Origin: an uncultured delta proteobacterium
GTDB lineage: Bacteria; Myxococcota_A; Polyangia; Polyangiales; B10-G4
Reading direction: 5' to 3'
Assembly: GCA_963727445.1 (NCBI GenBank)
Contig: CAVSGI010000020.1
Location: 704,001 to 768,000, forward strand
Length of the DNA stretch: 64,000 bases
Below are positions 57,183 through 64,000 of this stretch, piece by piece. The notes below the pieces were generated by a model, which was given only the letters and a program-made list of their open reading frames with translations, had not been told where the DNA came from and did no database searches. The position numbers and the translations under genes are program-made. Each line of letters begins with the position of its first letter. Within the stretch, counting starts at the first letter, position 1.

Positions 57183-57287
57183 CGGCGCTCCGACCCCGCC
57201 CGCTCGACCGGTCTTTTGCGTCCACGGCGCGATCTTTGGCGCCGCTCGGTACATCTTTCGGTGGGGCTTTGTGCGACGGTGGAGTGG

Positions 57288-59222
57288 ATGGCTACCAGCT
57301 CTTCGTTCGTCCGCTTCGTCGCGTGCTTCGTGGGCGCATTCGCGCTCGTTTCATGCGTCATGTCCCCGGACGCGGACCCGGCCGGGCCGCCGTCGGCGCC
57401 GGATTCCGTCGTGGCCAGTGGAGGCATCGTGGCGGACCCCGCGCTCATCGCGGCGATCACGGCTGAACCGGGTCCGCCGCCCATCTCCGGCGGGACGCTG
57501 CTCGTCACGCGCGACGGGCGCTTCGCAGTGATGAGCGATCCAGCGCTCGATACGATCTTCGTCGTCGACCTCGAGGCCTTGGAGGGCACGGCGATCGAGC
57601 TCGCCCCAGACGACGAGCCCGGGCGCCTCGTCGAGGACGACGCCGGACGCGTACACGTGGTCTTGCGCCGAGGCGGCGCCATCGTCACGGTCGATCCGGC
57701 GCGCGCGTCCATGGTCGCCCGCCGCGACGTCTGCTCCGCGCCTCGAGGGATCGCGTGGCGCGCCGAGGACGACGCGCTGGTGGTGGCCTGCGCGGGGGGT
57801 GAGCTCGTGTTCCTGCCGGCCTCGGGGGGCGAGGCGACGAGCCAGGTCGTGCTCGACGACGACCTCCGCGACGTCGTCCTCGACGGTGAGCGCATTCTCG
57901 TCTCCCGCTTTCGGGCGGCCGAGATCCTCGCGCTCGACTCCGACGGGACGCTGCGCGAGCGAATCCCCCTCACCACGATCGAGCTCCCGCTCTCCGACCG
58001 AACACCCGACTACTTCGAGCCGCCCCGCCGGATCCCGCACGTCGCCTGGCGCATGGTGGCCGCCGAGGGGGGAGCGCTGGTGCTCCATCAACGCGAGAGC
58101 ACTACGGTGCTCGAGACCGAGAGCGCGCTCGGGGGATATGGTGGCCCGAGCGTGTCGGCCCCCACCGATTGCACGGGCGAGCAGCGGGTCACGACCGTCG
58201 CGACCTTCGTCGGGGACCGCGCCGAGATCGGGGCCAGCCTCGATCTCGTCCTGGGCGTCGACGTCGCGCTCTCTGCGAACGGAGAGGAGCTCGTGGTGGC
58301 CACGCCCGCGAACGCCTATGCGCGGTCCGGGGGGCCCGACGCCCGGTCCGGCATGCTCGGTGGAGTCGCGACGTATGACGCGCTCACCGTTCACGCACCG
58401 AACGATTCACCGGATCCCCTCGCTTCGGAGGGGATCTGCGCGACTCGCACAACCACCGAGACGCCCGTGGACGGCGCGCCGACCGCGGTGGCCTTCGGTC
58501 CCGACGGCCGGCTCTTCATCCAGTCCCACGCCCCGGCGATGCTCACCATCGTCGGCGGGGGTGCGACGATGGACGTTCGCCTCGCGAACGACGCTCCGGC
58601 GATCGGCGAGGCCATTTTCCATGCGCGCACGGGCTCGGGCTTCGCCTGCGCCTCGTGCCACCCCGAGGGCGGCGACGACGGACACGTATGGGACTTCAGC
58701 TTCATCGGCCTCCGGCGTACGCAGTCGCTTCGCGGAGGGGTGCTCGGGACGGCGCCCTTTCACTGGGACGGGGAGTTCACCGACTTCGGCTCGCTCGCGC
58801 ACGACGTCTTCGAGGACCGCATGGCGGGCGGCGAGCTCGCCGCCTACGAGGTGTATGGCCTGGCTGGCTGGCTCGAGGGCATCCCGGCCCTGCCGCCGAT
58901 TCGCGCGGCGGGGGTGACGGATGAGGCCGTGCTCCGCGGTCGGGCGCTCTTCTACTCGCCCGAGCTTCTGTGCGCGAACTGTCACGCCGGCGGGTTGCTC
59001 ACGAACAACCGGAGCGTGGTGGCGGGGACCGGTGATTATTTCCAGGTTCCTTCGCTCCTCGGCGTGGCCCACCGCGCTCCGTTCATGCACGACGGCTGCG
59101 CTCCCACCCTCCGCGCCCGCTTCACCGACCCCGGATGTGGCGGCGGGGACCGCCATGGCCGCACGAGCGGTCTCACCGAAGGCGACATCGACGACCTCGT
59201 CGCGTTCCTCGAAACGCTCTGA
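57288..59222 (+). CDS. Beta-propeller (YncE-like) plus di-heme cytochrome c (peroxidase-like) lipoprotein
   Basis: ALVSC lipobox; propeller repeats; CASCH..RRTQSLRG..APFHWDG; CANCH..VPSLLGV..APFMHDG. Confidence 0.85.
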   Translation: MATSSSFVRFVACFVGAFALVSCVMSPDADPAGPPSAPDSVVASGGIVADPALIAAITAEPGPPPISGGTLLVTRDGRFAVMSDPALDTIFVVDLEALEGTAIELAPDDEPGRLVEDDAGRVHVVLRRGGAIVTVDPARASMVARRDVCSAPRGIAWRAEDDALVVACAGGELVFLPASGGEATSQVVLDDDLRDVVLDGERILVSRFRAAEILALDSDGTLRERIPLTTIELPLSDRTPDYFEPPRRIPHVAWRMVAAEGGALVLHQRESTTVLETESALGGYGGPSVSAPTDCTGEQRVTTVATFVGDRAEIGASLDLVLGVDVALSANGEELVVATPANAYARSGGPDARSGMLGGVATYDALTVHAPNDSPDPLASEGICATRTTTETPVDGAPTAVAFGPDGRLFIQSHAPAMLTIVGGGATMDVRLANDAPAIGEAIFHARTGSGFACASCHPEGGDDGHVWDFSFIGLRRTQSLRGGVLGTAPFHWDGEFTDFGSLAHDVFEDRMAGGELAAYEVYGLAGWLEGIPALPPIRAAGVTDEAVLRGRALFYSPELLCANCHAGGLLTNNRSVVAGTGDYFQVPSLLGVAHRAPFMHDGCAPTLRARFTDPGCGGGDRHGRTSGLTEGDIDDLVAFLETL

Positions 59223-59847: not shown

Positions 59848-60261
59848 ATGGCATTTTCGAGCGACATCCGAGTTCGATTCGGGGACGAGGACCATGCGGG
59901 GATCGTCTACTACCCCCGCTTCTTCGACTTCTTCCACCAGGCCTTCGAGGACTTCTTCGCGGACAACGGTGTCCCCTACAAGGAGGTCCTCGACGTCGAC
60001 AACTGCGGCTGGCCGTCGGTGCATGCGGAGGCGGACTTCGTCAGCCCGGCGCGCTTCGGAGACACGCTCACCGTCGAGGTCGAGGTCACCCGCATCGGGG
60101 ACAAGTCGGCCACCTTCGCCTTTCGAGGCGTGAACCGCGCCCAGGACCGGCTGGTGCTGAAGGGCTCGGTGACCTGCGTCTGCATCCGCATGGACACCTT
60201 CGAATCGCAGCCCATCCCGGACAAGTATCGGGCCATGTTCGAAAAGCACCTGGCGGGCTGA
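59848..60261 (+). CDS. Acyl-CoA thioesterase (4-HBT/YbgC hotdog family)
   Basis: VRFGDEDHAGIVYYPRFF, ADFVSPARFGD. Confidence 0.9.
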   Translation: MAFSSDIRVRFGDEDHAGIVYYPRFFDFFHQAFEDFFADNGVPYKEVLDVDNCGWPSVHAEADFVSPARFGDTLTVEVEVTRIGDKSATFAFRGVNRAQDRLVLKGSVTCVCIRMDTFESQPIPDKYRAMFEKHLAG

Positions 60262-60330: not shown

Positions 60331-62142
60331 ATGAAGGCCCTGATCAAGGTCGGCTACGGCTGCAACGACCACTGCTCGTTCTGCCACACGTTGGACGTCC
60401 GGCACGTCGACGGCGAGGCGCGCGAGATCCACGAAAAGATCGAGCGGGCCAAGACGCTCGGACACTCGATGGTGGTGCTCTCCGGCGGCGAGCCCACGAT
60501 CCGCCCCGAGCTGCTCGCTTGGGCTGATCACGTCGTGCGCCTCGACATGGACTTCGGCCTGGTCACCAACGGCCGGATGCTGAGTTACGGCGAGCTCACC
60601 GAGAAGCTCCTCGCGCGGCGGCTGAAGTACGTCTATCTCTCGCTCCACGGCGGGACGGCGAAGATCCACGACCTGATGGTGCGCTCCGAGGCCTTCGACG
60701 AGACCTATGGGGCGCTCGATAACCTCTCGGGACGCGGGCTCGACCTCACCGTCAACTGCGTCATCACCAAGCACAACGTCGACCACCTGAAGGGTGTGGT
60801 CGATGCCGTGCTGAAGTATCCGGACCTCGGGCTGAACTTCTCGATGGTGGAACCGAAGGGCGGCGGCGACGCGCTCTTCGAGCATCTGATGCCGCGGATC
60901 TCCTACGTCGCCGACAAGGTCCGCGAGGCGATCCGTTACGGCGACGCCGAGGTCGCGTCGCGAGGCGCCGTGGGGCCGCGCTTCAGCCACGGCGCGATCC
61001 CACTGTGCCTGATGCCCGGCGACGAGCGTCGGTACAGCGATCTGAAGAGCCACCGCTTCGCCGCCATGACCGAGATCGGAGAGCCCGATTTCTATCCGGT
61101 GGACGATCTCAACAAGGTGCAGCCGCGCGACAAGTGTCGCGGATGCTCGCTCAGTGGCGCATGTCCCGGTCTCTACAAGGGGTACGTCGAGGTTTTCGGA
61201 GACGACGAGGTGAAGCCGGTCTTCGACCGCCCGCGGAGCAACTCCTTCAACTACGTCTTCGAGGCGCGCGTCGCGCCCCGTCCCGATGGTGCATGCCCGC
61301 TCTACGCCGATGGAATCACTCCGTGGGATCGCGGCCGCCACCTCTTCGTCGAGCACGCGGGTCGCATCGGGCGCTACGTCGCACGCACGCGCGACTTCTC
61401 CGACGTCGAGATCGCCGAGCTCAAACACGACCTCGGGCAGATCTACGCCGATGTCTCGCGCAAGCCCGCGCCGGACGATTTCGCCAAGGACCTGGTGCAG
61501 CTCGAGCGGAGCGAACGCTGTGACGGATGCGAGCTGCGAGAGCGCTGCACCGGGATGTTCACGCCGCGCATGGAGGACGTCTTCACCCGCGACGATGCGC
61601 GCGTGCGCGCTCTGATCGGGACGCTCGAGGGGACTGTGCTGGACGTGGGATGCGGGGAGGGGCCGTACGAGGACGTGCTCGAACCGCGCGCCCGCTCGGG
61701 CGCCATCGAGTACGTGGGCCTCGAGCCGGACGCGGGGCGCGTGACCGCGCTCAGGGCGCGGAGGCCCTGGGCGACCATCGAGGAGGGGCGCGCCGAGGAC
61801 CTGAACGGGAGCCACGAGGCTCGCTTCCTGCACGTGCTCGTGCTCCGGAGCTGGAACCACCTCGAAGATCCCGAGCGCGCCCTCGATCGCATCGCCGCGA
61901 GCCTCGCGCCTGGAGGCACGCTCACCGTGGTCGACAACGTCGCCTTCGGCCTCGCCCGCTCAGCCGAAAAGACGCGCCGCGCCGAGTCCTCGCGCGCAGG
62001 CTTCGAGCACTACCGCAACGACGACGCCAGCGATGCGCACCGCCGCATCGCCGCGCGAGGCTTCACGCTCATCGAGCGCCACGACGTCGCCCCCGGCACC
62101 AGCAACCAGTGGCTCCTTCGCTACGCCAAGGGGACGGTCTAA
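60331..62142 (+). CDS. Radical SAM enzyme (HxsC-like) fused to a class I SAM methyltransferase
   Basis: CNDHCSFC, LSGGEPT, TNG, SLHG; IPLCLM; CRGCSLSGACPG and CDGCELRERCTG; VLDVGCGEG, GLEPD. Confidence 0.85.
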   Translation: MKALIKVGYGCNDHCSFCHTLDVRHVDGEAREIHEKIERAKTLGHSMVVLSGGEPTIRPELLAWADHVVRLDMDFGLVTNGRMLSYGELTEKLLARRLKYVYLSLHGGTAKIHDLMVRSEAFDETYGALDNLSGRGLDLTVNCVITKHNVDHLKGVVDAVLKYPDLGLNFSMVEPKGGGDALFEHLMPRISYVADKVREAIRYGDAEVASRGAVGPRFSHGAIPLCLMPGDERRYSDLKSHRFAAMTEIGEPDFYPVDDLNKVQPRDKCRGCSLSGACPGLYKGYVEVFGDDEVKPVFDRPRSNSFNYVFEARVAPRPDGACPLYADGITPWDRGRHLFVEHAGRIGRYVARTRDFSDVEIAELKHDLGQIYADVSRKPAPDDFAKDLVQLERSERCDGCELRERCTGMFTPRMEDVFTRDDARVRALIGTLEGTVLDVGCGEGPYEDVLEPRARSGAIEYVGLEPDAGRVTALRARRPWATIEEGRAEDLNGSHEARFLHVLVLRSWNHLEDPERALDRIAASLAPGGTLTVVDNVAFGLARSAEKTRRAESSRAGFEHYRNDDASDAHRRIAARGFTLIERHDVAPGTSNQWLLRYAKGTV

Positions 62143-62520
62143 ACTTTTCAACTTTCCGTGAGCGGGCCGTTCGACCGCTACGGCAAGGGGACGGTCTAGA
62201 CTTTTCAACTTTCTGTGAGCGGGCGGTTCGACCGCTACGGCAAGGGGACGGTCTAGACTTTTCAACTTTCTGTGAGCGGGCGGTTCGACCGCTACGGCAA
62301 GGGGACCGGCAAGGGGACGGTCTAGACTTTTCAACTTTCTGTGAGCGGGCGGTTCGAGGCGAGAAAGTTGAAAAGTGTAGACCGTCCCCGTCAGAGGCGC
62401 CGTCCCCGTCAGAGGCGCCGTCAGAGGCGGGAAAGTTGAAAAGTGTAGACCGTCCCGTCCCCGTCAGAGGCGCCGTCAGAGGCGGGAAAGTTGAAAAGTG
62501 TAGACCGTCCCCGTCAGAGG
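62119..62520. repeat. REP-like cluster: four direct and three inverted copies of GGGGACGGTCTANACTTTTCAACTTTC
   Basis: Direct cores at 62130, 62187, 62244, 62313 (57-bp period for the first three); inverted cores at 62363, 62431, 62486. Confidence 0.9.
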
Positions 62521-62969
62521 CCGACCTTCATGCCGGCGGCGTCGAGCTGCTTGCGGACGCGGGTGGCCTGGGCGGCGTCCGAGATGGCGACGGCCGAGAA
62601 GGCGGTCGCCATCACGGCGGCCGGGACGCTGGCGAGGCCGAGGAGGCTGAAGATGCCGTGGGCCACGGCGTAGAGCTGCCAACCGGCCGCGCAGAAGAAG
62701 GCCAGGCCGGCGATCACGGTGCCGCCCACCGCGGCCCAGGTCCGTGCGCGGTAGGTCATCAGCGCGAGGATCAGGAGCGCGGCGGCGAAGTTCAGATGCA
62801 CGATGGGGACGAGCTCGAGAAGCTCCCGGGTGAAGCGGGTGGTGAAGAGTTGGATGGAAGTGAAGGCCAGGAGCGCGCTGGTGACGCCGAGCAGCGCCGC
62901 CGCCACCTTCACCTTCCAGGTCCCCGCCGCCTTCGAGACGTCGATCTGGTCGAACGCTTCCACCACCAC
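62514..62969 (-). CDS. Small four-helix membrane protein
   Basis: Four hydrophobic segments; GC3 bias; start among three tandem GTG codons. Confidence 0.6.
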   Translation of the reverse strand: MVVEAFDQIDVSKAAGTWKVKVAAALLGVTSALLAFTSIQLFTTRFTRELLELVPIVHLNFAAALLILALMTYRARTWAAVGGTVIAGLAFFCAAGWQLYAVAHGIFSLLGLASVPAAVMATAFSAVAISDAAQATRVRKQLDAAGMKVGL

Positions 62970-63008
62970 CCGCCGGATAGCATGGGGTGGGCTCCGGTGC
63001 CTGTCGGC

Positions 63009-63043: not shown

Positions 63044-63355
63044 GTGGCCGACGGGGACAAAGGCGACGAGCTTCCCTCCTTCCGCGCCGAGGCCGGGGAT
63101 CGGCTGGTGGGCGAGCAGAAGCAGATCTCCGATCGGGCACGGGAGAACGCGGACAAGAACGTCGGCGGCTCGCCGCCCTCGGATCTGGTGCAGCGGGGTG
63201 GCCAGCACTGCTCCCATGCCTCCCATGGGTCGCATGGCTCCCACGGGTCGCACGGCTCCCACGGGTCGCACGGCTCCCACGGGTCGCACGGCTCCCATGG
63301 CTCCCACGGGTCGCACGGCTCCCATGGGTCCCACGGCTCCCACGGGTCCTGGTAG
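63044..63355 (+). CDS. hxsA: His-Xaa-Ser repeat precursor peptide 1 (HxsA-like): HCS-HAS-(HGS)14-W
   Basis: 103 aa; leader aligns with precursor 2; 16 HxS triplets at 63206-63349. Confidence 0.85.
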   Translation: MADGDKGDELPSFRAEAGDRLVGEQKQISDRARENADKNVGGSPPSDLVQRGGQHCSHASHGSHGSHGSHGSHGSHGSHGSHGSHGSHGSHGSHGSHGSHGSW

Positions 63356-63421: not shown

Positions 63422-63715
63422 ATGGCCGACGATGAGAGCAGCCAGGACGAGGGCGCAGAGGAAGAGGTCCCTTCCTTCAAGGCCGAGGCCGCGGATCGGT
63501 TGGTGGCGGAGCAGAAGGACATCTCCGAGCGAGCGCTCGAAAACGCCGATGATGGCGGCTTCGCAGGCGATGGTGGCCAGCGTGGAGCGCAGCACTGCTC
63601 CCATGGGTCCCACGGCTCGCACGGGTCTCACGGCTCGCATGGATCCCACGGCTCGCACGGGTCTCACGGCTCGCACGGGTCCCACGGCTCGCACGGGTCC
63701 CACGGCTCCTGGTAG
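63422..63715 (+). CDS. hxsA: His-Xaa-Ser repeat precursor peptide 2 (HxsA-like): HCS-(HGS)12-W
   Basis: 97 aa; acidic leader; 13 HxS triplets at 63593-63709. Confidence 0.88.
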   Translation: MADDESSQDEGAEEEVPSFKAEAADRLVAEQKDISERALENADDGGFAGDGGQRGAQHCSHGSHGSHGSHGSHGSHGSHGSHGSHGSHGSHGSHGSW

Positions 63716-63770: not shown

Positions 63771-64000
63771 TTGAAGCTTCCCGGAATTCCCGAAGAGCTC
63801 GCCGGCGCGGACCTCGAGCAAGGCTCCGTGCACGTCGTCGTCGATGACACGGTCTATCCCCTCGAAGCGATCTACGGCGCGAGCTTCGTCTTCATCGACC
63901 GCGCTTACGTCTTCGTCGATCGGCCGACCGCAGGCAAGTATCGCATCGTCCTCACGCCGAAGAAGGGCGGGGTCGACGAGGAAGGCATGAAGGCGCTCGT
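63771..64000 (+). CDS. hxsD: His-Xaa-Ser system protein HxsD-like, 3' partial (absent from the ORF track)
   Basis: Manual translation from TTG: MKLPGIPEELAGADLEQGSVHVVVDDTVYPLEAIYGASFVFIDRAYVFVDRPTAGKYRIVLTPKK..; the YPLEAIYGASFVFIDRAYVF motif resembles HxsD. Confidence 0.75.
   Translation, partial: MKLPGIPEELAGADLEQGSVHVVVDDTVYPLEAIYGASFVFIDRAYVFVDRPTAGKYRIVLTPKKGGVDEEGMKAL

Follow-up and report, generated by a model that had tools for sequence, protein, structure and literature searches.

A gene in the window analysed here, a stretch of 64,000 nucleotides of DNA taken as a whole, joins a radical SAM domain, two cysteine modules and a class I methyltransferase (MTase), and lies close to two genes for peptides built of HGS repeats. 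This arrangement raises the question of whether the fused protein belongs to the HxS-peptide system beside it and, if it does, what it may do to the peptide. A preliminary description had proposed a bifunctional tailoring enzyme that could modify and methylate the HGS core, for instance by N-methylation of histidine.

A three-domain fusion conserved among its relatives

The fusion gene (60331..62142, + strand) begins with ATG and encodes 603 amino acids: an HxsC-type radical SAM barrel (residues 1 to 298; 60331..61224), a middle domain (residues 299 to 420; 61225..61590) and a class I SAM-dependent MTase domain (residues 421 to 603; 61591..62142). All the motifs first described were located in this single frame, namely CNDHCSFC (residue 11, 60361-60384), IPLC (residue 223, 60997-61008), the first CxxC-x5-C-x-G copy CRGCSLSGACPG (residue 269, 61135-61170), the second copy CDGCELRERCTG (residue 397, 61519-61554) and VLDVGCGEG (residue 436, 61636-61662). 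The same frame has a GGEP motif at residue 52. The barrel thus carries CxxxCxxC, GGE and a first Cys set, C226 with C269/C272/C278; the middle domain carries SNSF, GQxYxD and DDF motifs and a second Cys set, C322 with C397/C400/C406; and the MTase domain carries DxGxG, RSxNH, EHxRN and NQW.

Residues 6 to 158 match Pfam Radical_SAM (PF04055; 74.8 bits, cut-off 29.5), and this score above gathering, the CxxxCxxC and GGE motifs and a partial barrel place the N-terminal domain in the radical SAM superfamily. Residues 432 to 582 match Methyltransf_23 (PF13489; 47.8 bits, cut-off 27), which together with the DxGxG motif and a Rossmann fold places the C-terminal domain among the class I SAM MTases. 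The best NCBIfam families are HxsC4 (NF038332; 96.8 bits against a cut-off of 500) and HxsC (TIGR03977; 72.8 against 267.9). As judged by these cut-offs, the fusion is a relative of HxsC and HxsC4 rather than a member of either, and no NCBIfam family covers it or its C-terminal half.

A homologue search with the fusion returned 959 proteins, and among the 120 matches listed nearly all are full-length, with 59-86% identity and both domains. We aligned 119 of these 120 (partial row P0019 was left out). All eleven motif cysteines are invariant in the 119 aligned close homologues (C11/C15/C18, C226/C269/C272/C278 and C322/C397/C400/C406), as are G440, G442, E559 and H560. The 119 sequences keep both halves, which bears out the expectation that relatives would retain the fusion and rules out an assembly artefact or a chance fusion. 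Three homologues of 1055-1137 amino acids (P0135, P0163 and P0250) carry the MTase unit fused into larger proteins. In a plasmid collection no record covered 80% of the fusion query. Among sequencing runs, none of RNA was listed as containing the gene, and contigs from three small-share DNA runs covered it patchily, none spanning it whole.

The AlphaFold model of the fusion has a pLDDT of 91 and a pTM of 0.89. Its barrel matches SkfB, viperin and SuiB at Z 18-19 (SkfB: Z 19.3, rmsd 3.0, 240 residues aligned). The MTase domain matches many class I MTases at Z 16-18, a fold likeness that does not separate O-, N- and C-methyltransferases. The ESM Atlas gave generic MTase clusters only, under 0.9, and PADLOC gave only generic viperin and MTase matches. 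Across 131 distant rows, residues G440, G442, P466, R506, N509, H510, H560 and W594 of the MTase are 95-100% conserved (G440 100%, G442 99%), and D438 is at 95%. The best PDB sequence matches of the domain are 3bus (RebM) and 6uv6 (named an O-methyltransferase), whose HH motif aligns with N509-H510; we take the histidine aligned with H510 to be the catalytic base of RebM.

Two related cysteine modules, one of which travels with the methyltransferase

Each module consists of one upstream cysteine (C226 or C322) and a CxxC-x5-C-x-G motif, and either set would suffice for a four-cysteine site that presumably binds metal. HxsC-type enzymes had been said to end in such a module. This agrees with a canonical HxsC from another genome, which scores over the family cut-off (378 bits), ends PLC...CxxC-x5-C-x-G and aligns with residues 11 to 282 of the fusion, Cys module included (24% identity, E 3e-11). 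The two modules had also been called duplicated. In a profile comparison by hhalign, the two Cys regions align over ~31 columns with P 63.9 and E 6.6e-5, against P 0.2-0.3 for two control pairs; on this comparison the modules are related beyond chance, but only over that stretch. The two related CxxC-x5-C-x-G copies therefore stand, but duplication of a full domain is ruled out, since the last ~30 residues alone match between the modules. In the second module, CxxC-x5/6-C is kept in 57 of 68 aligned rows.

The middle domain, which holds the second Cys module, is in every case joined to the MTase and travels with it rather than with the barrel. A model of this domain (127 residues, pLDDT 86.6) had no Foldseek match at E 0.001, and the best Z among 48,161 chains was 2.4. 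These searches linked the domain to neither a RiPP recognition element nor a SPASM fold, a result that shows neither a new nor a different fold.

Locus and genome context

Downstream of the fusion gene, on the same strand, lie two hxsA4 precursor genes, both over the NF038313 cut-off of 55. The first (63044..63355, + strand; 88.1 bits) encodes a leader followed by HCS-HAS-(HGS)14-W, and the second (63422..63715, + strand; 97 amino acids, 92.4 bits) a leader followed by HCS-(HGS)12-W. The GTG start of the first at 63044 is a reading from sequence, the ORF caller placing the start at 62987; the distance of ~0.9 kb originally given between fusion and precursors fits this likely GTG start. Both precursors are ~100 amino acids long, with a repeat-driven Collagen hit as the only Pfam match, and they are the only HGS-repeat precursor genes found in the assembly.

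Next comes an hxsD-type gene (156 amino acids), whose 5' part occupies 63771..64000 (+ strand; TIGR03976, 44.7 bits, under the cut-off of 50). Past the 90 positions of the TIGR03976 model, HxsD proteins of this subtype continue into a C-terminal extension marked by an almost invariant DPLGIAxSWEEK motif. Directly past the window end lie an hxsD-like gene (NF038315, 72.2 bits, cut-off 41) and then hxsB (TIGR03978, 550.3 bits, cut-off 370). The gene order is thus fusion, hxsA4 twice, hxsD, hxsD-like and hxsB, with no hxsC after hxsB; hxsB and an HxS-repeat gene share one locus, as the canonical definition of HXS requires. A predicted complex of the fusion with HxsD scored 0.01, with controls not folded, and speaks neither for nor against such a complex.

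No gene over the HxsC (TIGR03977) cut-off was found anywhere in the genome, which is 85.6% complete. The true HxsC4 is a separate gene (624 bits) that lies downstream, ~20 kb past the end of the fusion gene, and the genome has about ten HxsC-type domains, most of them ending in the same Cys module as the fusion barrel. These radical SAM domains are scattered (G000:C20:786427-830851 and C10, C13 and C15, loci L328-L335) and include a fusion with a B12-type radical SAM domain, a twin-barrel protein and a divergent pair.

Between the fusion and the first precursor lie an opposite-strand membrane-protein frame (62514-62981), with no homologue in 106 fusion loci, and a cluster of palindromic intergenic repeats (62130..62512, unstranded) that is not specific to the system. 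In the cluster a ~27-bp element recurs seven times, four times in forward and three times in inverted orientation. Genome-wide this element has 174 matches in 55 clusters, the reversed control having 0, and we presume it to resemble a REP/BIME-type intergenic repeat. Directly upstream of the fusion is a 4HBT-type thioesterase gene (59848-60261), which is ruled out as a member of the system because homologues occur near the fusion in only 14 of the 106 loci, all close relatives. Further upstream, 57216-59222 encodes a 668-residue protein, putatively secreted, that has a pair of CxxCH motifs close to the C terminus and weakly resembles the di-haem MbnH/MauG proteins. In 12 loci elsewhere (L004:9333-9878 and 11 others) a ~175-residue protein with a twin-arginine-like N terminus lies beside the system.

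The methyltransferase co-occurs with hxsB and HGS repeats

We examined 301 genomes drawn evenly from across the phylum, among which related genomes are not independent. The C-terminal half of the fusion occurs in 74 of the 301 (as a single match in 73 of these 74), hxsB in 112 and HGS repeats in 125. Every one of the 74 carriers has hxsB together with four or more HGS repeat matches, and none of the 189 genomes without hxsB carries the MTase. The MTase is optional within the system, because 38 of the 112 hxsB genomes are without it.

In a GTDB set of 39 loci, 32 are close orthologues, from myxobacterial and related records; hxsB is present in 20 of these 32 and an HxS precursor in 14, several of the others ending at contig edges. 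Four full-length close loci (L006, L015, L016 and L022) lack any hxs gene up to 10 kb away. Carriers of the gene include two cultured species, Plesiocystis pacifica (L024) and Paraliomyxa miuraensis (L005). At the level of the phylum, an hxs core gene is nearby in 18 of 75 loci, and any hxs or HxsC-type gene in 36. The proposal that the fusion is part of an HxS-peptide system holds up in this neighbourhood check, above all in the 74 carriers and the 20 of 32 loci with hxsB, and the fusion very probably belongs to the HGS-repeat system. Sampling outside the phylum drew on a library at 50% identity, five distant genomes and metagenome loci. Very long precursors, with 49, 49 and 37 HxS repeats, occur in L203, L204 and L123, respectively.

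The radical SAM barrel is dispensable across the family

The 75 loci matching the C-terminal half, our own included, were classed by script and by eye. In 28 the barrel is intact, 25 have a barrel without CxxxCxxC, 20 encode standalone MTases, one is a fusion to a B12-type radical SAM domain and one is cut by a contig end. The radical SAM motif or the whole barrel is therefore absent in 45 of the 75, and the 25 barrels without CxxxCxxC mostly keep their C-terminal cysteines. We count at least seven changes between the intact and non-intact states on the MTase tree, a quick tree with two long rows. In all five standalone genomes tested a barrel orthologue is absent (full-length matches at 32% identity or less). 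Another HxsC-type radical SAM gene directly adjoins 16 of the 20 standalone genes and lies 6 kb from one more, and three have no HxsC-type gene in the fetched DNA. The library at 50% identity has the same spread of architectures.

The radical SAM half is thus dispensable across the family. An HxsC-like radical SAM domain is indeed fused to an MTase here, as first described, but bifunctionality is not obligate for the family, since the motif or barrel is missing in those 45 loci. The distribution across genomes suggests that the MTase half is the essential part of the fusion.

The methyltransferase accompanies one type of precursor tail

Precursors beside an MTase-negative hxsB mostly end HGQW, and those in MTase-positive loci end HGSW. 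Three matches ending in TGG instead of a stop (in G216, G068 and G062) were left out of the tail count. The (HGS)n-W-stop tail (HGS-HGS-W-stop) occurs in 77 of the 301 genomes, 72 of which have the MTase; the HG(Q)W-stop tail (HGS-HxQ-W-stop) occurs in 29, of which one has it. This sole HGQW carrier, G299 (L147, L148 and L050), contains both system subtypes and two hxsB genes: an HGQW precursor with its own hxsB and, elsewhere, an HGSW precursor with the second hxsB and a standalone MTase. In the HxsB tree, the hxsB adjoining this HGQW precursor groups within the HGQW clade.

Five HGSW genomes (G284, G223, G293, G098 and G152; 82-98% complete) are without the MTase. A profile search with the middle domain found the MTase in none of 40 MTase-negative genomes and detected seven of eight positive controls. 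The same profile found it in none of the five distant genomes, two of which have an HGAW tail, in a search run without a positive control. Among 79 metagenome loci the MTase is present in 6 of the 54 with an HGSW tail and in none of the remainder (17 with other tails, 8 with unread tails), an underpowered contrast (455 kb versus 105 kb of DNA). A 92-row HxsB tree has three tail changes and two independent pairs, both concordant (sign test, p 0.5). The link between tail and MTase is thus phylogenetically thin, as it rests on two to three independent evolutionary changes. The HGSW and HGQW subtypes also differ in their HxsC paralogues, the MTase being one of several differences.

Proposed role and alternative explanations

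From gene context, HxsB, HxsD, the HxsD-like protein and the roughly ten HxsC-type radical SAM domains would act on the HxsA4 peptide. The middle domain and MTase form, as their architecture shows, the conserved working unit, which would methylate its acceptor from SAM in an ordinary SN2 reaction. Residue conservation and the match to O-methyltransferases in alignment point to His510 or Glu559/His560 as the base. The tail correlation suggests the C-terminal Ser-Trp end as the likeliest acceptor, at the terminal carboxylate, the hydroxyl of the last Ser or the Trp. The fused barrel, intact in this lineage, probably carries out one of the radical modifications; across the family it may be at least a docking or peptide-binding scaffold, which can decay or yield to a neighbouring HxsC paralogue.

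That the enzyme methylates the HxsA4 precursor we consider probable. That it does so at the C-terminal end is a tentative proposal. Taken together, we offer, at a little under even confidence, the reading that the fusion is an accessory tailoring enzyme of an expanded myxobacterial HXS system, which may also serve in phage defence, and that it methylates by SN2 the Ser-Trp end of precursors ending in (HGS)n-Trp. A more elaborate version seems quite unlikely to us: a novel iron-sulfur- or zinc-capped peptide MTase that docks on an HxsC barrel, be it fused, dead or supplied by the adjacent gene, reads the C-terminal Ser-Trp of a poly-cyclised HGS peptide and joins radical with SAM chemistry in a one-carbon addition. 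If true, it would give a tractable route to the +C/-4H change of the HXS anti-phage effector and would mark out, in roughly one in four of the genomes sampled from this phylum, a RiPP class that has gone unstudied. We favour methylation of the Ser-Trp end over methylation of His or Ser along the repeat, followed by action on another substrate and then by coupled one-carbon chemistry.

Repeated N-methylation of His, or O-methylation of Ser, along an HGS core whose same residues the barrel prepares is unlikely but survives best. The C-terminal half co-occurs strictly with HGS repeats, the repeat offers no reactive side chains but those of His and Ser, all 119 close homologues in the alignment (out of 120 listed among 959 matches) retain an intact barrel, and the tail correlation may reflect lineage history. 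However, this MTase is absent from 28 of the 29 HGQW genomes, whose repeats are the same. Because HGS repeats occur with both tail types, the enzyme is more likely to act on the Ser-Trp end than on His within the repeat, and the N-methylation of histidine first suggested is accordingly less favoured. The barrel is also lost or decayed in 45 of 75 loci, and, as a weak point, the accessible part of a 2024 review of RiPP MTases has no histidine example (PMC11285071).

Within the system, the MTase could instead have a target apart from HxsA4, for instance a partner protein, a fragment that is released or a small co-substrate. Its closest structures are small-molecule MTases, and the searches with the middle domain turned up no peptide-recognition fold, but the MTase tracks a one-residue feature of the precursor and no conserved small-molecule pathway gene accompanies it, the thioesterase neighbour being present in only 14 of 106 loci. 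We hold such a target to be improbable.

We rate lower still a coupled chemistry like that of C10P/C10Q, in which the barrel would form a SAM-derived radical adduct that the MTase fold resolves by intramolecular SN2 into a one-carbon bridge. The main text of the HXS study reports that E. coli HxsA is modified by +C/-4H at SHRSS (PMC13128918), equal to +CH2 minus 6H and so to an added carbon. The C10P/C10Q precedent, in the part of that report available, uses a catalytic His (PMC6050322), and most loci have the MTase either joined to a barrel or next to one. However, C10P is HemN-like and the fusion barrel is not, the DxGxG SAM motif of the MTase is intact, and 25 loci have it fused to dead barrels, most without another radical SAM paralogue in the fetched DNA. 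E. coli, moreover, reaches +8 Da with no system-encoded MTase in the main text (PMC13128918). That the fusion gene is unrelated to the HxS system and merely nearby would fit the opposite-strand frame and repeats separating it from hxsA4 here and the 39 of 75 loci without any hxs-type neighbour, but its barrel is an HxsC homologue, and the co-occurrence counts (0 of 189 hxsB-negative genomes, 74 of 74 carriers with hxsB and HGS repeats) have already largely refuted this reading, which we regard as most improbable.

Significance and comparison with known systems

As the preliminary description had supposed, the fusion appears to be an undescribed part of the Hxs system: in a literature search that covers few subscription journals, neither this fusion nor HGS-repeat systems turned up. 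The fusion is genuine and conserved and is linked to the HGS-repeat system, a myxobacterial relative of HXS that has gone unstudied, and we claim no new chemistry for it. Methylation of the Ser-Trp end would add an SN2-type enzyme with a short, synthesisable substrate to HXS, a system of unsolved chemistry. The natural standalone forms of ~300 amino acids, such as L047:9045-9992, may be assayable without the radical SAM barrel, and the Ser/Gln tail switch offers a ready-made negative control. Repeated decay of the barrel with the fusion persisting would clearly illustrate how a radical SAM fold can be retained as a scaffold. If the reaction is plain methylation the meaning is moderate, one more tailoring enzyme in a myxobacterial system of unknown function.

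Canonical HXS is described, in the main text of its one experimental report, as an anti-phage system of HxsD, HxsB, HxsC and HxsA that blocks phage DNA entry, with HxsC forming a complex with HxsD and more than 99.8% of systems having four genes (PMC13128918). The effector gains +8 Da by a mechanism given there as unsolved, reconstitution having failed, and that text mentions none of 'methyltransferase', 'Myxococc' or 'HxsC4' (PMC13128918). The order of genes at our locus departs from the one described there, and the substrate here is a ~100-residue (HGS)n-W peptide without a peptidoglycan-binding domain. Like HxsC (TIGR03977), the fusion barrel ends PLC...CxxC-x5-C-x-G and occurs with hxsB, hxsD and an HxS-repeat substrate. 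Unlike HxsC, the fusion has no ~100-residue N-terminal extension and adds a second Cys domain and an MTase, and the genome holds about ten paralogous domains, of which the fusion barrel is one. The nearest subsystem is that of HxsC4/HxsA4 (NF038332, NF038313): both precursors score over the HxsA4 cut-off and HxsC4 is the best-scoring family for the barrel, although at 96.8 bits against 500.

Among peptide MTases, LahSB, as covered in the accessible part of the review, shares the class I fold (6uak; Z 16.1, rmsd 3.8, 185 aligned) and acts on a peptide C terminus, the role we propose for the fusion as a works-like hypothesis (PMC11285071). The likeness is at 17% identity and tied with many other MTases, and LahSB has neither a Cys domain nor a radical SAM fusion. 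C10P/C10Q, so far as the available part of that report describes them, likewise bring a radical SAM enzyme and an MTase fold with a conserved His into one pathway (PMC6050322). They are, however, separate proteins with a HemN-like radical SAM partner and a small-molecule substrate, whereas the barrel of the fusion is HxsC-type and dispensable.
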